A stretch of DNA of 51,542 nt. It comes from an uncultured Chitinophaga sp. GTDB taxonomy: Bacteria > Bacteroidota > Bacteroidia > Chitinophagales > LD1. The notes beneath the pieces were generated by a model, which was not told where the DNA came from, did no database searches, and saw nothing but the letters and a program-made list of their open reading frames with translations. The position numbers were made by a program, and so were the translations under genes. The DNA lies in NCBI GenBank assembly GCA_964563185.1, contig CAZLXD010000002.1, positions 1 through 51,542 on the forward strand, given 5' to 3'. This document shows, piece by piece, positions 3,865 through 51,542 of the stretch (positions within the stretch are counted from its first letter, which is position 1; each line of letters starts with the position of its first letter).

Positions 3865-5055
3865 TTACTTTGTTACCCAATCACAAATTTGTTTTCCTAT
3901 GGAAAGTGAAGCCGTAGCAGCCGGTGAAGGCGCATTGAGCACGTGCAATATCCTTCCTTTTTTAACAAGAAGAAAATCATCCACTAGGGCTCCTTGCCGG
4001 CTACACATTTGTGCACGTACTCCTGCACCGCTTTTTATCAAATCATCTTCTCTGACTTCCGGTATAAATCTTTGTAGTTCTTTTGTAAAGGCGGCTTTTG
4101 AGTAAGATCGATACAGCTCTTTTAATCCCACCCGCCAATATCGCATAGCTACCTTTCTAAACCCCGGGTGAAATAGATACTTCCCTAATTCTCCAAGATT
4201 GATGTCCGATTTCGTGTACCCCTCCTTGCAATATGCCAAAACTGCATTCGGCCCGGCTTCTATTTCCCCTGTAATACGCCTGGTAAAGTGAACCCCCAAA
4301 AAGGGGAAATTTATATCCGGCACAGGATATATCAGATTTTTTACCAAGTACCGCTTCTCTTCTTTTATTTCATAGTATTCCCCTCTAAAGGGCACTATTG
4401 TGTCCTCTATACTTTCTGTCATAGCGGCAATATCATCTGAATACAATCCACCACAATTAATAAGTTTATCTGTTGCTAAAGTACTTCCATTTTCAATTGC
4501 AATTTTAATATGTGCTGTTTGCGGAGTAATACCCACTACTTTGTTTCCCAGAAGTATTTCTCCGCCCATTGAAGTAAATAGCTCTGCTAATTTTTGGCCT
4601 ACTTGTTTGTAGTTGACAATACCGGTTTGTGGAACATAAATACCCCTTACACCAACCAAGTGAGGTTCAATCTCCTTCATTTCGGCACTACTTACTTTCC
4701 TAAGGCCAGCCAATCCGTTCTGCAAACCCCGCTCAAAAAGCATGTCCAGCGTAGCTATTTCGTAATCGTCAGTTGCTACAATCAACTTTCCGCACAACTC
4801 ATGTTCAACTCCGTTTTCTCTGCAAAACTCTATAAGTCGATTATAGCCCTCTATACAGTTAATGGCTTTCTTACTTCCAGGTTTGTAATATATGCCTGAG
4901 TGTATTACACCGCTATTATTCCCTGTTTGATGTTTACAAATGACATCTTCTTTTTCAAGCACTGCTATTTTTGCCGCAGGTGTATCTCTAAGTAAATTGT
5001 ATGCTGCTGAAAGACCAACAATACCACCGCCTATTATCAAAAAATCGTATTTCAT
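3865..5055 (-). CDS. lhgO: L-2-hydroxyglutarate oxidase (FAD-dependent)
   Basis: FAD motif IIGGGIVG at the N-terminus. 396 aa. Overall LhgO/YgaF-like pattern (NSGVIHSGIYY, GVRAQ). Confidence 0.8.
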   Translation of the reverse strand: MKYDFLIIGGGIVGLSAAYNLLRDTPAAKIAVLEKEDVICKHQTGNNSGVIHSGIYYKPGSKKAINCIEGYNRLIEFCRENGVEHELCGKLIVATDDYEIATLDMLFERGLQNGLAGLRKVSSAEMKEIEPHLVGVRGIYVPQTGIVNYKQVGQKLAELFTSMGGEILLGNKVVGITPQTAHIKIAIENGSTLATDKLINCGGLYSDDIAAMTESIEDTIVPFRGEYYEIKEEKRYLVKNLIYPVPDINFPFLGVHFTRRITGEIEAGPNAVLAYCKEGYTKSDINLGELGKYLFHPGFRKVAMRYWRVGLKELYRSYSKAAFTKELQRFIPEVREDDLIKSGAGVRAQMCSRQGALVDDFLLVKKGRILHVLNAPSPAATASLSIGKQICDWVTK

Positions 5056-20670: not shown

Positions 20671-21128
20671 AGGCGAGGTGGCGCCTTACTGCCGCGCTCT
20701 GGAACTGGTAGGCAAAAAAGGGTGAAAAGCGAAATGGAAACTTGCGTGTATAGTTAAGTTAACTCTGTTCGTCAGTTCCGTCCTTCGCAGGCTCGCTTAC
20801 TTCAGTGCTTGCTTCACAACAAACCACCTTGCGACTTGCACCACTTCCTCGATACTATCAAGGCGTGGAGAGACATTCACCCTCGGGGTTTCTCTAAGTA
20901 ATTTAAAGAACTATATTCATCATCCGGGGGGCGCACAGCACCTACCCAAAAGTGGCGGTTCAGTGGTTAAATCAAGCATTGTACTTCTATCAAAGTTTGT
21001 GCTTGGTTGATAGTGAAGTGCTTCAAATTTGCCTTCCGCCCGCTCAAAATCCCTTTCCGTCTGCTCAAAAAAACCTTCCCGGTTTACTATACCTTTTTTG
21101 GGGTTACAGCCGTTAACAAACCACCATA

Positions 21129-32353: not shown

Positions 32354-32467
32354 GAAAGAAGATTTCCGAAGCTTTTGATATTTAAAAGTATTTAGATGGC
32401 GGGGCACCGGCCGATAAGAAATGGTTGCTGTGTTTGTATATCTTTGAGAAAACAAAGTTGTTTCGCC

Positions 32468-32698
32468 ATGAAACCATATCAGGAAATAATTTCGGTGAAT
32501 CCGAATGTGCGCTCGGGTAAACCATGTGTGCGCAATTTGCGAATTACCGTAGCCGATGTGCTTGGTTACCTTGCCGCAGGCATGACCCGGCAGGAAATAA
32601 TTGCTGATTTTCCCACACTTACCAATGAAGATATTACTGCCTGCCTGGCTTATGCGGCAGACAGCGAAAAGCATGTAAAGTTTGCCTCGGTTGACTAA
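32468..32698 (+). CDS. DUF433 domain protein (putative antitoxin)
   Basis: The sequence NPNVRSGKPCVRNLRITVADVLGYLAAGMT.EEI..DFP.LT.EDI.A.L.YA is the typical DUF433 pattern. The internal ATG at 32468 is used. Its stop overlaps the next start (TAATG). Confidence 0.85.
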   Translation: MKPYQEIISVNPNVRSGKPCVRNLRITVADVLGYLAAGMTRQEIIADFPTLTNEDITACLAYAADSEKHVKFASVD

Positions 32699-33030
32699 TG
32701 GTTTTAGTAGATAACAATCTCTCTTATCGGGTAGCTGTTTTTCTTCATAAGGCTTTTCCGGGCAGTGCACATGTGGCAACGTATAACATGGATGAAAACA
32801 CCGAAGATATTGCGATATGGAATTTTGCGAAAGAAAAGGGGTTTACTATTCTTACTAAGGATAATGACTTTGAATCGTTGAGCCGTTTGTTTGGCTGCCC
32901 GCCAAAGGTTATTCAACTTACCTGCGGCAATAAAACAACTTCACAGATAAATTCAATTTTAGAAAAAAGCGTTGCCGTAATAGGCGGTTTTATTGAAGAT
33001 GACGAAAACTGCCTGATGTATTTGCAGTAG
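32698..33030 (+). CDS. DUF5615 family PIN-like nuclease (putative toxin)
   Basis: The N-terminus (LVDNNLSYRVAVFL) and the motif (ILTKDNDF) are typical of the Mut7-C/DUF5615 partners of DUF433. Confidence 0.8.
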   Translation: MVLVDNNLSYRVAVFLHKAFPGSAHVATYNMDENTEDIAIWNFAKEKGFTILTKDNDFESLSRLFGCPPKVIQLTCGNKTTSQINSILEKSVAVIGGFIEDDENCLMYLQ

Positions 33031-33475: not shown

Positions 33476-35548
33476 TCACTCAAACAAAATCTTCTTATAA
33501 ATACTACCCTCGCTTGTGTGGCATTCTATAAAGTACAAACCTTGTTTCGCTACCGGCAAAATAATTTGTTGCGTATGTGTGCCTTCGCCTAACTTGCCCA
33601 AACTATAAGTGGGCGAAATACTTCTACCTTGCAGGTCGGTTACTTGTATGAAAAAGTCATCGGCTTTCTTTACTTCCAATTTCAGGTTGATTTCTTTTTG
33701 AGCCGGGTTAGGAAAAACCTCTAAAGAGGCAACTGATGATACCTCATGAATGCCACCACAAATAAGGTAATAGTTGCAAGTGTCGAGATAATTAAAACAC
33801 CAATTGTTGATGACGTAACCTAAGGCACAGGCATCGTAAAAATCAAGTTGCTTGTGCTCATAGCAAACTAAAACCTGATCGGTACCGGGATATTGATATT
33901 CAGGGCAAGTAAACAGGCCACCACAGCACTGGCTAAAATGATTATACGGATAAATCAGTTCAGCCATATTACCGATACCTTCTACCCATTTTAACTGCAC
34001 TTGATTAACACCTGCCCCTTTTTTTAGATAAAACACTTTACGTGGCGAGGCGGTATGTTGGGCATTAAAAGAACCAATAGAGTCAAGCTTGTAAACGCCT
34101 GTTTGATAATAACTGAAGCTATTTGAAAACCGGAGGGTTACAGTGTCGCCTATCCCCATTCCAAAATCGTACAGCAGTGTTTCGTATGCACTATCTATAT
34201 CCCAAAAGTATATCCTGCGCATAATGGTGTCTTCGCGCAAATAGCCCATTACACATTGTTGCACGGGCCACATGTTAAGTGTTTGGCTCCACAGTATTTT
34301 GTACGTGTAGCTATCAATCATGGTATCATTACCGGTGTATTCTGTAAAGCCGTTTCCGGAGTTGGAAGACCCCGGCCCGCAATTGCTGCTACGGGAGTTG
34401 TTATTACCGGGATTGCCCAAAACAGGCATTAGATTACTTACGTAGTGCCAAACATTAACGGAATCTAACAGCGGCACATAAGTGCCATCGGTAATACTCA
34501 ATTGCAGGCAAGTATCATAAGCGCATTGGCTAGTACTATCGGATATATGCACACATACGCTGTAGTTTCCATTGGCTGTAAAGCGATAAAAAACACTCCC
34601 TGCTACCGAATCCTGAATAATGGTGTCCGAATTAATTGTCCATACAAAATTTTTAAGTTGGATAGTATCTGTACAAAGGGCTGAGAAATTGTAATAACCC
34701 GGCCCCACGTTTGTTGATTTGAAACTAGCGCTGCATTCGGAAACAACTTCCACACTATCCATTTGAATACAACCACCTGCATCGGTTATAGTTACATAGT
34801 ATTTTCCTGCTGCTAAGTTTGTTCGGGCACTATCAGTGTTGCCATCGCTCCATAAAAATGTAAATGGAGCTAAGCCATTTTGTATTTCAATGGCAGCCGA
34901 ACCGGTATTGCCCCAGTTGGCAGGCAAACGGTGTTTTAGGTATTTAAAACAAATGGTATCAACATTGGCATTTGTAAAATAGCATCCCGCAATGGCTGGT
35001 ACGGTATAGCTTATTCCTCTAAAACACAAATACAATTGCAATAGGCTAGTGTATGTAATGCCACTTATTTGCGCAAAAAAAGTATCGGAAATATTGGTGT
35101 TGTTTGTCCAAATAGTATCGTAAAAAACGGGACTACCCGGCTTAATAATGTACTTGTAGTTACCTAAAGGCCGCATTAGGTTACATGTGTTGCCCTCCCA
35201 AAAGGTAATACTTACCGAATCGATGGGAGATATTACGTTTTGCGATTGAATACCGCGGATAGTAAAAGCAGGGGTTGATACAAATTTGAACCAAACATCT
35301 TTACCAGTTTGTTTACCGAAAGAGCTGTTACAGGTGCTATCGGTAGAGTAATACGGGTAAGATACAGTAGCCTGTAGGGTAGAAACATCAATGCAGGTAT
35401 CAAACAGGCTAAAGTCGTACGAAAGAAAATTATACGTGCCGTCCATAACACCAATATCGGTAGCGGTGGCGCAATTATCGTTTGGTACTTGGGCCTGTAA
35501 ATTACAAACGGTAAGTAAGATTAGTAGAAGAGGGAAAAGTTTTTTCAT
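33476..35548 (-). CDS. T9SS type-A sorting-domain secreted protein with an SprB-repeat/PKD-like module
   Basis: Signal peptide. SprB-type repeat (FTFLWSDGNTDSARTNLAAGKYYVTITDAGGC). C-terminal Por-secretion tail (LEVFPNPA...GLYFIE...KILFE). Confidence 0.85.
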   Translation of the reverse strand: MKKLFPLLLILLTVCNLQAQVPNDNCATATDIGVMDGTYNFLSYDFSLFDTCIDVSTLQATVSYPYYSTDSTCNSSFGKQTGKDVWFKFVSTPAFTIRGIQSQNVISPIDSVSITFWEGNTCNLMRPLGNYKYIIKPGSPVFYDTIWTNNTNISDTFFAQISGITYTSLLQLYLCFRGISYTVPAIAGCYFTNANVDTICFKYLKHRLPANWGNTGSAAIEIQNGLAPFTFLWSDGNTDSARTNLAAGKYYVTITDAGGCIQMDSVEVVSECSASFKSTNVGPGYYNFSALCTDTIQLKNFVWTINSDTIIQDSVAGSVFYRFTANGNYSVCVHISDSTSQCAYDTCLQLSITDGTYVPLLDSVNVWHYVSNLMPVLGNPGNNNSRSSNCGPGSSNSGNGFTEYTGNDTMIDSYTYKILWSQTLNMWPVQQCVMGYLREDTIMRRIYFWDIDSAYETLLYDFGMGIGDTVTLRFSNSFSYYQTGVYKLDSIGSFNAQHTASPRKVFYLKKGAGVNQVQLKWVEGIGNMAELIYPYNHFSQCCGGLFTCPEYQYPGTDQVLVCYEHKQLDFYDACALGYVINNWCFNYLDTCNYYLICGGIHEVSSVASLEVFPNPAQKEINLKLEVKKADDFFIQVTDLQGRSISPTYSLGKLGEGTHTQQIILPVAKQGLYFIECHTSEGSIYKKILFE

Positions 35549-35718
35549 AGAGGTGCTTTATGTAAACATACAAAGTATGCTTTCTATTCGATTGCGCTCT
35601 CTTAAAAAATGACATTTCTGTGACAATTCCCCCAATGGCGAGCGTTTCCCCACTGCCCCCGCACCTCGCTCTTGCCAAAGAGGTTAAAGCAACTTCAACA
35701 AATCAACGGAACTTCTCC

Positions 35719-36327
35719 TCACTCCTTCTTCTCCTCATCGCCCTTCTGTTTAAGTTTAGGCTTTCTTTTCTTTTTGTTGCGCTGTCGTATTGTCTCCTTT
35801 GCTCTTTTTATTTCCTCCTCTGAAAGAAACTGGTGAGCAAACACCTCGCGGTAGTATTGCCATTCGCGGACTGTTAAAGGAGTCCAGTTTGCGTATAAAA
35901 CGGTACTGGCTTCTGCCGCGCATTGTTCAAATTCCTGTAATAGTTGTACCGATAGTTGGTTGTGTGCTTTGGCTGAACCGTTTGCCACCGCCCTTCGCCA
36001 TTTCAAATTGTGATGCCCAAAAACAACCTGCAAATACTCTACGTGCGAAAGAAACATGTGCAGCCTCGAACTGGCATCGGTTTGCTCGTAGCAGGCTTTC
36101 CTGTTTTTGGAAAGAAACTGAAGCATACTTAACGGGTAGTGTTGTTCCCCGTTATGGAAAATTAGCCCCCATTCGTTCTGGTAGTAGTCCTCCACTAAAG
36201 GCTTTGGTATTCGACCGGCTATCATTAGCCGGATTGTTTTCCAGGAGAGCCTTGAAAACAATTGCTTCTGTTTTCGATAGCGCAACATAAGCTGTTCTCT
36301 AATCTGTTGTTCAGTTACTGTTACCAT
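35719..36327 (-). CDS. Hypothetical protein (202 aa) with a Lys-rich C-terminal tail ending KGDEEKKE
   Basis: Long ORF with an ATG start, 42 nt downstream of the HTH gene on the same strand. No family recognised. Confidence 0.6.
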   Translation of the reverse strand: MVTVTEQQIREQLMLRYRKQKQLFSRLSWKTIRLMIAGRIPKPLVEDYYQNEWGLIFHNGEQHYPLSMLQFLSKNRKACYEQTDASSRLHMFLSHVEYLQVVFGHHNLKWRRAVANGSAKAHNQLSVQLLQEFEQCAAEASTVLYANWTPLTVREWQYYREVFAHQFLSEEEIKRAKETIRQRNKKKRKPKLKQKGDEEKKE

Positions 36328-36368
36328 ATATAAGGTTGGTAGTTAAGTAAACGGATTATTTCTCCCCC

Positions 36369-36716
36369 TCACTCCTTCTTCTCCTCATTGCCCTTTTCAA
36401 ACAGCTTGCGTATTTCATCGGGGCTAAGGTTTTTAATAGCCTCATCCAGCACAAACGGGGCTTTGGGTTTAAGCTGTTGCAGGGGATGCCGGGGGTCGTC
36501 CTGCATGGTGTCATCGGGCAACCATTCAAACAGGTCGTTGGGGCGGCAATGCAAAAGCAGGCATAGTGTTTCTACATGCTCAATCAATATCCATTTCTTT
36601 TTGCCGCTCATATAGTCGTGGGCAATAGAGTGGCTAATGCCCAGGGCTACCATTTTTTTAAACGGAGCCTTTACTCCTTTTTCTTTCATGAGCGATTTAA
36701 TACGTAGGCGAATCAT
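36369..36716 (-). CDS. XRE/Cro-C1-type helix-turn-helix DNA-binding protein (115 aa), tail KGNEEKKE
   Basis: The N-terminal 65 aa show the HTH_3-like pattern, ending in the typical L...L.C.PNDLFEW. Confidence 0.7.
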   Translation of the reverse strand: MIRLRIKSLMKEKGVKAPFKKMVALGISHSIAHDYMSGKKKWILIEHVETLCLLLHCRPNDLFEWLPDDTMQDDPRHPLQQLKPKAPFVLDEAIKNLSPDEIRKLFEKGNEEKKE

Positions 36717-36854
36717 GGTGTTTATTTTTAAGGTTAAATAATTGCTGAATTATCCCCTCTTCCTATCCCCGCTGCGGGATGCTGCACTTTGCCGACAGCA
36801 CTAATATAAGCATCTGTTTTAATCCTTAAAAATTTTTTTCGGAGGTAAATCAAC

Positions 36855-37022
36855 ATGCCGAAGCGGTAACTGTAAATGCTGAAACGGTAACTAAAAGTTA
36901 GAAACCGGTAACTGAATATTGCGCAGTGGTAACGAAAAATGATGCGGCAGTAACAAAAAATGATGCGGTGGTAACGAAAAGTGCTAAAACGATAACTGAA
37001 AATGCCGCAGCGGTAACTATAC
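36855..37022. repeat. Eight contiguous 21-bp direct repeats (iteron-like), core GGTAAC
   Basis: Units start at 36855, 36876, 36897, 36918, 36939, 36960, 36981 and 37002. A degenerate in-phase unit (GGTAAA core) lies at 36834-36854. Confidence 0.9.
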
Positions 37023-37116
37023 CCCCGTGCAAAACTTGCCTTTTTAAAGCGGCATAAAAGGCCGGTGCCGCTATAGCTTAGCCTTAAAATATTACTAACA
37101 CTAAAAACCAAACACT

Positions 37117-38085
37117 ATGAACAGCGCACAGGAAGACCACTACGGCATGTATTTAAAAGTTGATCTTATGTTGGGCACCAATGCTCCCGATTTAGCCTTT
37201 AACCCGGCTATAGCCACCAACAAAACAATACTGCACTCGCTTATTAACCTTATTGCACAGGCCGACAGTACCGCCACCCGCGACATTACCGGCTTTACAA
37301 CCGCTAAAAACGAACACCGCACGCAGCAAATAGCCCAGTTTAAACTGGTGCGTGCGGCTATGATGGGCTACTACACCACCAACCCCGACATTAAAAGCAA
37401 AACCATTATTGATTTTAATGATTCGGATATTGACAAGTTCCGCGATGCCGAACTGTACATAAAAACCGATCAGTTGCTTGATTTGGCACTGCCCGTAAAA
37501 GCCGTGCTGGATACCTTTGGCGTTACTTCGGGCGAAGTGGATGCCCTGGAGGCACTGAACGAGGCCTGGCAAAGTTTAGAACCCATAGGCCGGCAGGAAG
37601 AAGGAGTAAACAAAGCCGCCCGCGAAGATGTGGGCCGCTATATGGTGCAGACAGACAAATTAGTAAAGAACACCTTAGATAGTTATTTAAAGGTAGTGGA
37701 GTACACAAACCCCAACCTGTACAGCCGTTACTTAACCGCCCGTATGATTGACAACAGCGGGGGCAACAGCGGCACTGAGGGGTACGATGTACAAACGCTG
37801 AACATACCTGCAGGCGGATCGGTGTTGTTTCCTATTGGGGCGGGGTCTATTAACCCACTTCTTCAAATTTACCTGCGCGCTATAAGCGGTAATGTATTTG
37901 TATGCACTACCGATTTACCCGCCAGCCCATGCGTAGCTGCCGGCAGCTATCAATTGCTGCAGGGGGTTACTTTTAAAAAGAGTATAGGCGAGTTGGGAAT
38001 AGACCTGAACAAGAATACCCTGCAACTAACCAACCCCGGCTTAAGCGATGCGGTGATAAGGGCAGGGGTAAAAGAGGAGGAGTAA
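37117..38085 (+). CDS. Hypothetical protein (322 aa): no signal peptide, helical N-terminal half, beta-rich C-terminal half, tail GVKEEE
   Basis: Long ATG-initiated ORF followed 15 nt later by a strong terminator hairpin. No family recognised. Confidence 0.65.
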   Translation: MNSAQEDHYGMYLKVDLMLGTNAPDLAFNPAIATNKTILHSLINLIAQADSTATRDITGFTTAKNEHRTQQIAQFKLVRAAMMGYYTTNPDIKSKTIIDFNDSDIDKFRDAELYIKTDQLLDLALPVKAVLDTFGVTSGEVDALEALNEAWQSLEPIGRQEEGVNKAAREDVGRYMVQTDKLVKNTLDSYLKVVEYTNPNLYSRYLTARMIDNSGGNSGTEGYDVQTLNIPAGGSVLFPIGAGSINPLLQIYLRAISGNVFVCTTDLPASPCVAAGSYQLLQGVTFKKSIGELGIDLNKNTLQLTNPGLSDAVIRAGVKEEE

Positions 38086-50390: not shown

Positions 50391-51542
50391 TGCCGATAAG
50401 CAGTTGCGCGAAAAGCTGAAAGGAGTGGAATATCCTTTCGACCCGCAGGCATGGGAGCAGATGGAGGCCATGCTGGACGAGAAGAAAAAGCGCAGAGGTT
50501 TCTTTTGGTGGTGGGTTGGCGGTATAGCGACAGCCTTGCTGATAACCGCAGGTACCATAGGCTACGGCTTGTGGTTAATGGGCGAAGAGGACCGCTTTGC
50601 AGGAGCAGAGTATGCGCAGGAACAAGAGCAAGGGGAAAACAGAAAGCAAGTAGTTGGCAGTGAAGAGCAAAAGGCAAAAAGCAAAGAGCAATTAGCCAAT
50701 GATAATGAAGAAGAAAGAGCAAAAGACAAAGAGCAAATTGCGAAGGGCAAAGGGCAGTTGATAAACGGCAAAGGGCAAGAGACAAACAATAAACAGAGAA
50801 CAGCAAACAACAAACAACAAACCAAAACTTCGCCCGCGGCTAAACAAAACCGCAAAGGCAACCAGCAGCAACGCACTAAAGAAGTGTTGGAGCAAGTAGC
50901 AAACAACGAAGCAAACTATAACAACAGCAGTGCGCAAACCGAATTGGCAACTCCGGCTGTTCCTGTTTCAGCAACACAAAAAGAAGAAGCCCTTTCGCTA
51001 AACACTATGTATGCTTTATTGAATGGCAAGGACGATGCCTTGAACACCGATAAGAAAGAAGAAAGTAAACTGCCGAAGAAGAAAAAGTGGTTTACCTATT
51101 CCATTGGGCCTATGGCAAATGTTACGGGCACTATTCTCAGCAATCCATTTGTTGCTGATAGTGCTGCCCGCAACCGTTCCGCTTTTTCGAAGGGCGCTTC
51201 GTTTATGGCGGGCTTTCAGCAGGAGTTTTTGTTTGTTGACCGCATAGCGCTTACTACCGGATTTTTGTATTCGCAAACTTCGTTTGATATACACCACATT
51301 AACCTAAACAACAACTATTCGCGCCCGCCATTAGCTTATACCTGCAACATCAGCGAAATGAATATTACCACCGGCATTAAAGCCAACCTGGTAGCAAAAA
51401 ATAATGTGCGCTTTTATGTGCATACGGGTTTTATACATCACATAAAACTAACGGAGCAGTTTACCTATACTTATCCAAATGATACGGTGCCCGCTAATGT
51501 TTGGAACGGAAGTAATGTGGTAAACAACACCACCGGTTTCCC
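50380..51542 (+). CDS. Putative anti-sigma / membrane-anchored protein with a C-terminal porin-like beta-barrel (partial; runs off the right edge)
   Basis: Manual translation from ATG 50380 gives MESNADKQLREKLKGVEYPFDPQAWEQMEAMLDEKKKRRGFFWWWVGGIATALLI... This is followed by a K/E/Q-rich linker and then a beta-strand-rich region. The frame is open to the window end. It overlaps the sigma-factor stop by 11 nt. Confidence 0.7.
   Translation, partial: MESNADKQLREKLKGVEYPFDPQAWEQMEAMLDEKKKRRGFFWWWVGGIATALLITAGTIGYGLWLMGEEDRFAGAEYAQEQEQGENRKQVVGSEEQKAKSKEQLANDNEEERAKDKEQIAKGKGQLINGKGQETNNKQRTANNKQQTKTSPAAKQNRKGNQQQRTKEVLEQVANNEANYNNSSAQTELATPAVPVSATQKEEALSLNTMYALLNGKDDALNTDKKEESKLPKKKKWFTYSIGPMANVTGTILSNPFVADSAARNRSAFSKGASFMAGFQQEFLFVDRIALTTGFLYSQTSFDIHHINLNNNYSRPPLAYTCNISEMNITTGIKANLVAKNNVRFYVHTGFIHHIKLTEQFTYTYPNDTVPANVWNGSNVVNNTTGF

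Follow-up and report, generated by a model that had tools for sequence, protein, structure and literature searches.

A few plasmid, phage, and Streptomyces systems contain small regulators that spread along extended phased arrays of repeats. Iterons (P1, F, R6K, RK2, pPS10) are contiguous direct repeats of 17-22 bp at a spacing of about two helical turns, and every repeat binds one monomer of a Rep protein encoded adjacent to them. The omega protein of pSM19035 is a small cooperative binder of 7-10 contiguous short direct or inverted repeats upstream of promoters. In lambdoid heteroimmunity, the repressor and its operators are swapped as a module between otherwise near-identical genomes. The small MerR-like protein BldC of Streptomyces oligomerizes cooperatively and head-to-tail on direct repeats, which yields a protein-DNA filament (PMC5859096). 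In parC/ParR, phased direct repeats at the operon promoter are bound cooperatively by an autoregulating adaptor encoded next to them (PMC2241845), and the specificities of adaptor and repeat diversify jointly into mutually private families (PMC9426499). We analyzed a DNA stretch of 51,542 nucleotides from an uncultured Chitinophaga sp. (contig CAZLXD010000002.1; the whole stretch is called the window below) in which 21-bp repeats lie head-to-tail between a gene for a 115-amino-acid (115-aa) helix-turn-helix (HTH) protein and a divergent gene for a 322-aa protein. The array is probably the cognate multi-site binding platform, i.e. the operator array, of the adjacent HTH_26 protein, which would assemble on it head-to-tail.

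The array in the window is made of asymmetric units in a single orientation (Table 1). Our re-reading returned the same units as a first-pass annotation of this DNA, i.e. eight good units at 36855-37022 preceded by a degenerate unit with a GGTAAA core at 36834-36854, and the same core at offsets 11-16, which is GGTAAC in 6/8 units with AGTAAC and GATAAC as variants; the coordinates given there for the genes flanking the gap are also correct. Unit positions 2, 13, 14, 15, and 20 are invariant in all nine units. Identity at a lag of 21 over 36834-37022 is 0.625, compared with a mean best-lag identity of 0.377 (standard deviation 0.020, maximum 0.463) in 1000 first-order Markov simulations for which the maximum was taken over lags 5-63, and the array is the strongest periodicity at any lag within the 51.5-kb window. 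At 189 bp it occupies about half of the 400-bp gap between the two genes, and not most of it as first described. Tandem 21-bp direct repeats with two-turn spacing are also the geometry of iterons, a likeness that holds here. The five ATG-N9-TAA mini-ORFs (open reading frames) pointed out in the first pass do exist, as a consequence of the conserved ATG and GGTAA columns; arrays at related loci have unit sequences quite unlike those of the window.

Asymmetry and uniform orientation extend beyond the window. Among 26 arrays, unit orientation is uniform in 25, dyad symmetry within units reaches p < 0.05 in a single case, which is chance level, and a 10/11-bp sub-period within units is absent. A exceeds T on the strand reading away from the HTH gene in 23 of these arrays, which suggests a common array polarity. 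Extra or inverted core copies near the arrays occur at chance level across 26 loci, with the exception of locus L022 (see below). Two such copies may be mentioned on their own: an inverted double core (ATGGTAACAGTAACTGAA, minus strand) at 36313-36328 of the window, at the start of a 202-aa ORF just past the HTH stop codon, and an inverted core copy ~55 nt beyond the HTH stop codon of L003; inverted hits over the 26 loci equal the chance expectation. Tandem Repeats Finder reports a period of 21 at 36844-37018 (8.3 copies, 67% matches) along with a 42-bp period that scores above it. A 42-bp self-match equal to or better than the 21-bp one is seen in several arrays (L018, L020, L029, and positions 36864-37017 of the window), and the array of the window differs in length from that of its close relative L001 by exactly 42 bp; from this pattern, units may be gained, lost, or used pairwise.

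To follow the array through related genomes, 25 loci of the 322-aa family were fetched, 22 of which contain enough upstream DNA. In 21 of these 22, the sequence ~260-350 bp upstream of the 322-aa start matches itself best at a lag of 21 (or 42) and holds ~8-10 units. The same 21 loci contain a divergent HTH homolog with the array between the two genes, and the HTH and 322-aa genes are the sole conserved neighbors. In the remaining locus, L022, the order is 322-aa gene, array, HTH gene, all on one strand, and the array is directly upstream of the HTH gene. In the L022 array (4086-4340), three inverted TGTCAATG copies come after eight CATTGACA units, with the 21-bp spacing maintained; inverted copies in phase would be expected of a protein site but would not result from simple slippage. 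A mixture of direct and inverted copies is a likeness to omega, which differs in its 7-bp heptads, ribbon-helix-helix fold, and plasmid location, and doubles as a centromere protein.

More distant HTH homologs (27-40% identical) were collected by a profile search with the HTH alignment, and eight were inspected. Immediately upstream of the HTH gene, each of them has an array with a 21-bp period and ~9-12 units; the 322-aa gene is absent and the neighbors are unrelated (sigma-54 activator, LptD, RibD_C, and others). At L067, a remotely related 322-aa gene is again accompanied by a divergent HTH gene and a degenerate 21-bp array. The array is thus present in 31/31 informative loci, with ~8-14 units (median 9), and a homolog of the 115-aa HTH gene adjoins every array examined. 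Because L022 and the eight loci lacking the 322-aa gene keep HTH-adjacent arrays, the array follows the HTH gene rather than the 322-aa gene. Co-occurrence of array and genes, which the first-pass annotation had raised as a check, therefore applies to the HTH subfamily whatever the other neighbors, and none of the 31 informative loci is devoid of the repeat. The best lag is 21 or a multiple in every locus, while the unit consensus differs in almost every lineage, e.g. GGTAAC in the window, TTCTGAAAC in L004, TTGCCCTATGGACGGACACTA in L014, and GTAAGTTACTAAGTTAGAGAT in L023, and paralogous modules within one genome carry different units (L009/L013, L014/L015, L011/L018). The geometry of the array thus appears constrained and its sequence free.

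The 115-aa protein exceeds the Pfam cutoff for HTH_26 with 29.6 bits (cutoff 22), and comparison with Pfam, PHROG, NCBIfam, and PADLOC revealed nothing beyond this domain. The conserved motif LC..L.C.PNDLFEW.PD is present, as is a helical extension at the C-terminus. The AlphaFold2 model (predicted local distance difference test score, pLDDT, 87) contains a five-helix Cro/C1-type domain, with H2 at residues 18-24 and the recognition helix H3 at 29-37, followed by the extension with three extra helices at 78-114. Among solved structures, the HTH domain of Stl2 from SaPI2 is nearest in sequence (profile E = 8e-7; PMC11846896), and this similarity is confined to residues 1-80. Mean pairwise identity across the family is lowest in H3 and its loop (0.29) and reaches 0.48-0.53 in H1 and H4-H5. 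Pairs of loci with nearly the same HTH protein (L020/L026 and L028/L029) retain an identical unit core, which in L020/L026 is kept despite 18% array divergence and without indels. The negative correlation between substitutions and information content in L020/L026 comes from a partly circular measure and was set aside as evidence.

Comparison of close relatives provides a second line of evidence that protein and array belong together. Between loci L006 and L024, the DNA to the left of the final ~30 nt of the HTH coding sequence (CDS) and to the right of the array is ~100% identical, and the intervening ~640 bp, which hold the HTH CDS, promoter, and array, are 40-60% identical. The window and L001 display the same two boundaries, with 30-70% identity across 36410-37015 and 98-100% from 37023 onward (Table 1). 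Over the two pairs, a cassette of ~620 bp is 50-65% identical between flanks with about 100% and 87-100% identity, respectively. The DNA-binding part of the HTH gene, its promoter, and the array are thus inherited and replaced jointly. The arrangement resembles lambdoid immunity regions and Stl2, in which a Cro/C1-type gene is divergent from its target, sites lie between them, and modules are exchanged, as in L006/L024 and window/L001. It differs from the lambdoid case, where a few palindromes are bound by dimers, in its roughly nine asymmetric direct repeats, and no prophage or satellite genes were found near the module.

The array is stable and is no hypermutable, slippage-prone contingency tract, because near-identical contigs from different samples have identical arrays of unchanged length and L020/L026 differ by no indels. 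Its surroundings are less uniform. The far side of the HTH gene (33476-36327 of the window, 2318-3203 of L001) is unconserved even in this 87%-identical relative; there the window has a gene for a 690-aa type IX secretion system (T9SS) cargo protein and the 202-aa orphan, and L001 has two small plus-strand ORFs. The HTH module therefore lies in a variable part of the chromosome. The 202-aa ORF downstream of the HTH gene has no family match and is unconserved in relatives.

Table 1. Positions of the features around the 21-bp array, and identity of segments between the window and the related locus L001.
Feature	Position in window	Strand	Description
21-bp repeat array	36834..37022	.	9 head-to-tail units, consensus ATGcnGmrgCGGTAACtrAAA
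115-aa HTH_26 (Cro/C1-type) gene	36369..36716	-	Proposed array binder; Pfam PF13443, E = 8e-7
322-aa gene, divergent from HTH gene	37117..38085	+	Frequent but dispensable partner of the HTH-plus-array pair
Exchangeable specificity cassette	36410..37022	.	HTH CDS minus last ~15 codons, HTH promoter region, and whole array
Predicted Bacteroidota-type −7 box TATATTAG of HTH promoter	36801..36808	-	92 nt upstream of HTH start codon
Conserved promoter/leader block of 322-aa gene	37023..37116	+	98% identical to L001 (neighboring array 60%)
GTGCAAAA box at array border	37027-37034	+	Recurs at array border in closer relatives
−7-like box TAGCTTAG	37074-37081	+	Upstream of 322-aa gene
125-aa ORF through array	36734..37111	-	By-product of stop-free repeat unit, no gene
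HTH 3' end, window vs L001	36355-36400		87-96% DNA identity
HTH CDS overall, window vs L001			68% DNA, 58% protein
HTH-array gap, window vs L001			49% DNA
Array, window vs L001			60% DNA, 42-bp length difference
37023 to 322-aa start codon, window vs L001			98% DNA
322-aa CDS, window vs L001			88% DNA, 87% protein

The layout of the gap is consistent with a regulatory position. Boxes resembling TAnnTTnG, the published Bacteroidota −7 consensus, are predicted to mark promoters and occur on both sides of the array. In 10 loci such a box is found at a distance of 88-94 nt from the HTH start, and in the window the array starts ~30 bp upstream of it. On the other side, 10 loci have a −7-like box at a fixed −43/−44 relative to the start codon of the 322-aa gene, and two others have it at −47 and −49. 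The −7-like boxes of the two divergent genes, both conserved in position, thus bracket the array and point away from it on either side; at distant solo HTH loci, the array ends just 20-70 bp from the start codon. A separate GTGCAAAA box occurs exactly at the promoter-side array border in the window and in L001, L003, L006, L008, L011, L012, and L024, ~47 bp upstream of the −7-like box. The exchanged cassette has its right-hand boundary at this same GTGCAAAA box, which could be the site of a second factor or a recombination arm.

If the array is the operator array of the HTH protein, one asymmetric 21-bp unit would serve as one binding site for one protomer, and the 21-bp spacing, i.e. two helical turns, would put every site on the same face of the DNA. 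Some nine protomers, or protomer pairs on 42-bp double units, would assemble head-to-tail, probably through contacts of the conserved C-terminal extension, to give a ~190-bp nucleoprotein complex. This complex would fill the space between the two predicted divergent promoters and would determine how strongly the HTH gene is expressed, along with the divergent 322-aa gene at loci that have one, with repression as the likelier direction. The DNA-binding part and the array would evolve and recombine as one specificity cassette, and this linkage may keep each module private, also in genomes with two modules. A multi-site operator or nucleoprotein-filament site was among the options offered by the first-pass annotation, and this option is backed by the linkage in all 31 loci and by joint exchange of the cassette.

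Several observations weigh against the operator array. XRE-type proteins normally bind palindromes as dimers; the units here lack dyad symmetry, so the reading requires a binding mode that is unusual for such a protein. The promoter boxes are consensus matches only. A covariation test (position weight matrix similarity, partial Mantel) related the arrays to H2-H3 identity with the rest of the protein controlled, and showed no correlation (partial r = 0.03, permutation p = 0.35), on a measure that is coarse and for which arrays diverge too fast. Individual pairs of loci point the same way: the window and L013 have similar units with dissimilar recognition helices, and L014 and L015 have similar helices with unrelated units.

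Among described systems, BldC is similar in being a small DNA-binding protein without an effector domain that is associated with asymmetric direct repeats, the number of which is variable in BldC. BldC has a MerR-type winged helix, whereas the protein described here is of the Cro/C1-type HTH_26 family; BldC occupies many promoters with differing repeat numbers, whereas the arrays here have a fixed 21-bp period and ~9-12 units beside the protein's own gene; and oligomerization is published for BldC, whereas we infer it for the HTH protein. The parC/ParR (plasmid R1, pSK41, C. perfringens) and tubC/TubR systems combine ~4-10 phased repeats with an adjacent gene for a small adaptor, a likeness that extends here to the geometry and to the linkage with the small HTH gene. 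The adaptor folds differ: ribbon-helix-helix in ParR and winged HTH in TubR, but a Cro/C1-type HTH_26 domain with five helices and a C-terminal extension here. These systems also include a filament-forming NTPase and reside on plasmids, whereas no NTPase was found here, the locus is chromosomal, and the partner gene is dispensable. By analogy, the module would work most like BldC and the ParR/parC or omega adaptor-array pairs, and its exchange resembles that of phage immunity regions. It belongs to none of these systems, because of its HTH_26 fold, the absence of an NTPase or Rep, its non-palindromic sites, and its chromosomal context. A literature search found no description of the HTH-array module.

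An array with no specific protein site, in the form of a phased A-tract bend, a promoter spacer, or a neutral duplication kept by unequal recombination, is an unlikely alternative that nonetheless accounts for several features. Many arrays have one A-tract per unit, helix-phased in the window; unit sequences turn over fast; and the 42-bp super-period, together with the 42-bp difference between the window and L001, fits duplication or deletion of unit pairs. However, 9 of the 26 arrays have 0.35 or fewer A/T-tracts per unit (none in L003; 0.11 in L013, L014, and L027) and still keep the period of 21. The period, unit count, and position are held beside one protein family across proteins that are 30-40% identical, a specific core is conserved within an array while other columns drift, and the inverted copies of L022 stay in phase. 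Curvature was rejected as a conserved property, as A-tract content is too uneven across arrays.

It is improbable that the array is bound by a different factor, such as the 322-aa protein or a host protein, next to an HTH gene that is merely co-located. The negative outcome of the covariation test between recognition region and array would fit such a factor, and family and fold searches did not establish a function for the 322-aa protein. This protein has no match in Pfam, PHROG, NCBIfam, or PADLOC. Its AlphaFold2 model (pLDDT 89) has an N-terminal helical bundle and a C-terminal jelly-roll or cupin-like domain, and fold searches of PDB and BFVD with this model gave weak results, in which the C-terminal jelly-roll alone matches cupins with a template modeling (TM) score of ~0.2 on the query. 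Yet HTH homologs without an adjacent 322-aa gene, and with otherwise unrelated neighbors, still have arrays upstream, and the HTH gene is the sole gene that always adjoins the array. The exchanged cassette also holds the DNA-binding part of the HTH gene and the array and excludes the 322-aa gene.

It is also very unlikely that the array is, or derives from, an origin of the iteron type or a centromere of the parC/tubC type, with the HTH protein as an initiator or adaptor for replication, partition, or handcuffing. Contiguous direct repeats two helical turns apart that adjoin a gene for a small DNA-binding protein are suggestive of such a site, and the co-diversification of protein and repeat resembles the incompatibility-driven divergence of ParR and parC (PMC9426499). 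Nevertheless, the first-pass annotation saw no Rep, partition NTPase, or integrase, and our scan of the window ORFs (~18.6-20.7 kb and 26.5-49.7 kb) agrees with it: no gene for Rep, ParA, ParM, a TubZ-like protein, or an integrase was found among these neighbors or at related loci. The 322-aa partner is missing from eight loci, and neither an NTPase fold nor an NTPase Pfam domain was found in it. No DnaA box was matched near the array, from 22 to 41.6 kb of the window. In the iteron comparison, a Rep-type winged-helix initiator and a plasmid context were likewise not found, and the protein has merely 115 aa. The 322-aa protein has no match in plasmid (PLSDB) or phage collections, and the surroundings of the loci are chromosomal, on contigs that reach 500 kb, with DNA polymerase I, RNase E/G, GldB, and NAD synthase nearby. 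The integrated-replicon relic, iteron, or centromere proposed in the first pass is therefore not upheld. A phage link was also considered and rejected: viral HTH_26 relatives exist, match the HTH domain only, and are without 21-bp arrays. A scan of viral contigs for a GGTAACx3 pattern gave at least 120 matches, which are unrelated.

Expression of the array, as a heptad-repeat protein (the 125-aa minus-strand ORF) or as a repeat-containing RNA, is extremely unlikely: a 21-nt unit has the length of seven codons, the gap in the window can be read through on the minus strand without a stop, and the source annotation called a 64-aa gene inside the L004 array, but stops interrupt every one of the six frames in 10 of 21 arrays, the open frames of the others vary in strand and phase, the 125-aa ORF has no protein family match above threshold, Rfam gives no match at E ≤ 1, folding energy is no better than that of shuffles (z = +0.9 and −0.8 for the two strands), and the predicted −7-like boxes on both sides face away from the array. 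Conservation of the 125-aa ORF as a protein, which the first-pass annotation named as evidence against its own reading, is thus not observed; the coding reading was rejected on the stop counts in six frames of 21 arrays, with no conserved frame, and the RNA reading on the Rfam scan and both-strand folding.

The 322-aa gene was labeled an orphan in the first pass together with its HTH neighbor. The HTH-plus-array pair is instead a conserved family trait, and the 322-aa gene belongs to a large uncharacterized superfamily. Close homologs number 39, all of ~320 aa, from Bacteroidota metagenomes and Chitinophagales genomes, and the superfamily, large and unnamed, extends to 4250 representative clusters at E ≤ 1e-3. 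Within it, the N-terminal helical domain is conserved, and the C-terminal β domain is in some members swapped for CarboxypepD_reg or PPC-like domains. Several paralogs of the superfamily are possible per genome.

The wider window is an ordinary Bacteroidota chromosome, with GldB, NAD synthase, GH31, T9SS cargo proteins, MbnP, and cytochrome c peroxidase. At 32396-33030, neighboring genes for a DUF433 protein (100 aa) and a DUF5615/PIN-like protein (110 aa) are arranged as is typical of toxin-antitoxin pairs and are located within a stretch that differs between the window and L001. Two further repeats were noted: a short 21/22-bp tandem repeat at 21032-21081 (2.2-2.3 copies, CCTTCCGCCCGCTCAAAAAAA), with a sequence unrelated to that of the array, and a long run of 7-bp repeats (AGCAAAA, AAAGGGC, ACAAACA) at 50628-50822, in a region where AT skew and GC skew are both strong, at the end of the window.

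To our knowledge, no Cro/C1-type protein is known to spread over a long phased array, and such spreading is not known in Bacteroidota as a chromosomal trait common to a whole family. We tentatively propose, as a possibility that goes further than the operator array itself, an undescribed chromosomal nucleoprotein switch in Chitinophagales. In such a switch, a Cro/C1-type protein would give up its usual binding of palindromes as a dimer and polymerize head-to-tail over 9-12 asymmetric 21-bp sites, covering ~200 bp on one face of the helix. The portable cassette would be swapped at two fixed boundaries, which would keep paralogous modules private, and the modules may gate a large superfamily of proteins with a helical bundle and a swappable β domain. 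The ~30 different 21-bp "words", each with a matched HTH variant, offer a decodable specificity series and candidate orthogonal regulatory parts for Bacteroidota. Limnovirga soli KCS-6, which is cultured and has two modules (NZ_WHPF01000012.1, 42.9-49.9 kb, and NZ_WHPF01000001.1, 192.0-199.0 kb), makes the system directly testable. The sharp exchange of cassettes between otherwise identical strains points to strong selection on specificity, and this selection raises the question of the role of the regulated 322-aa superfamily, with its thousands of clusters that have no annotation.

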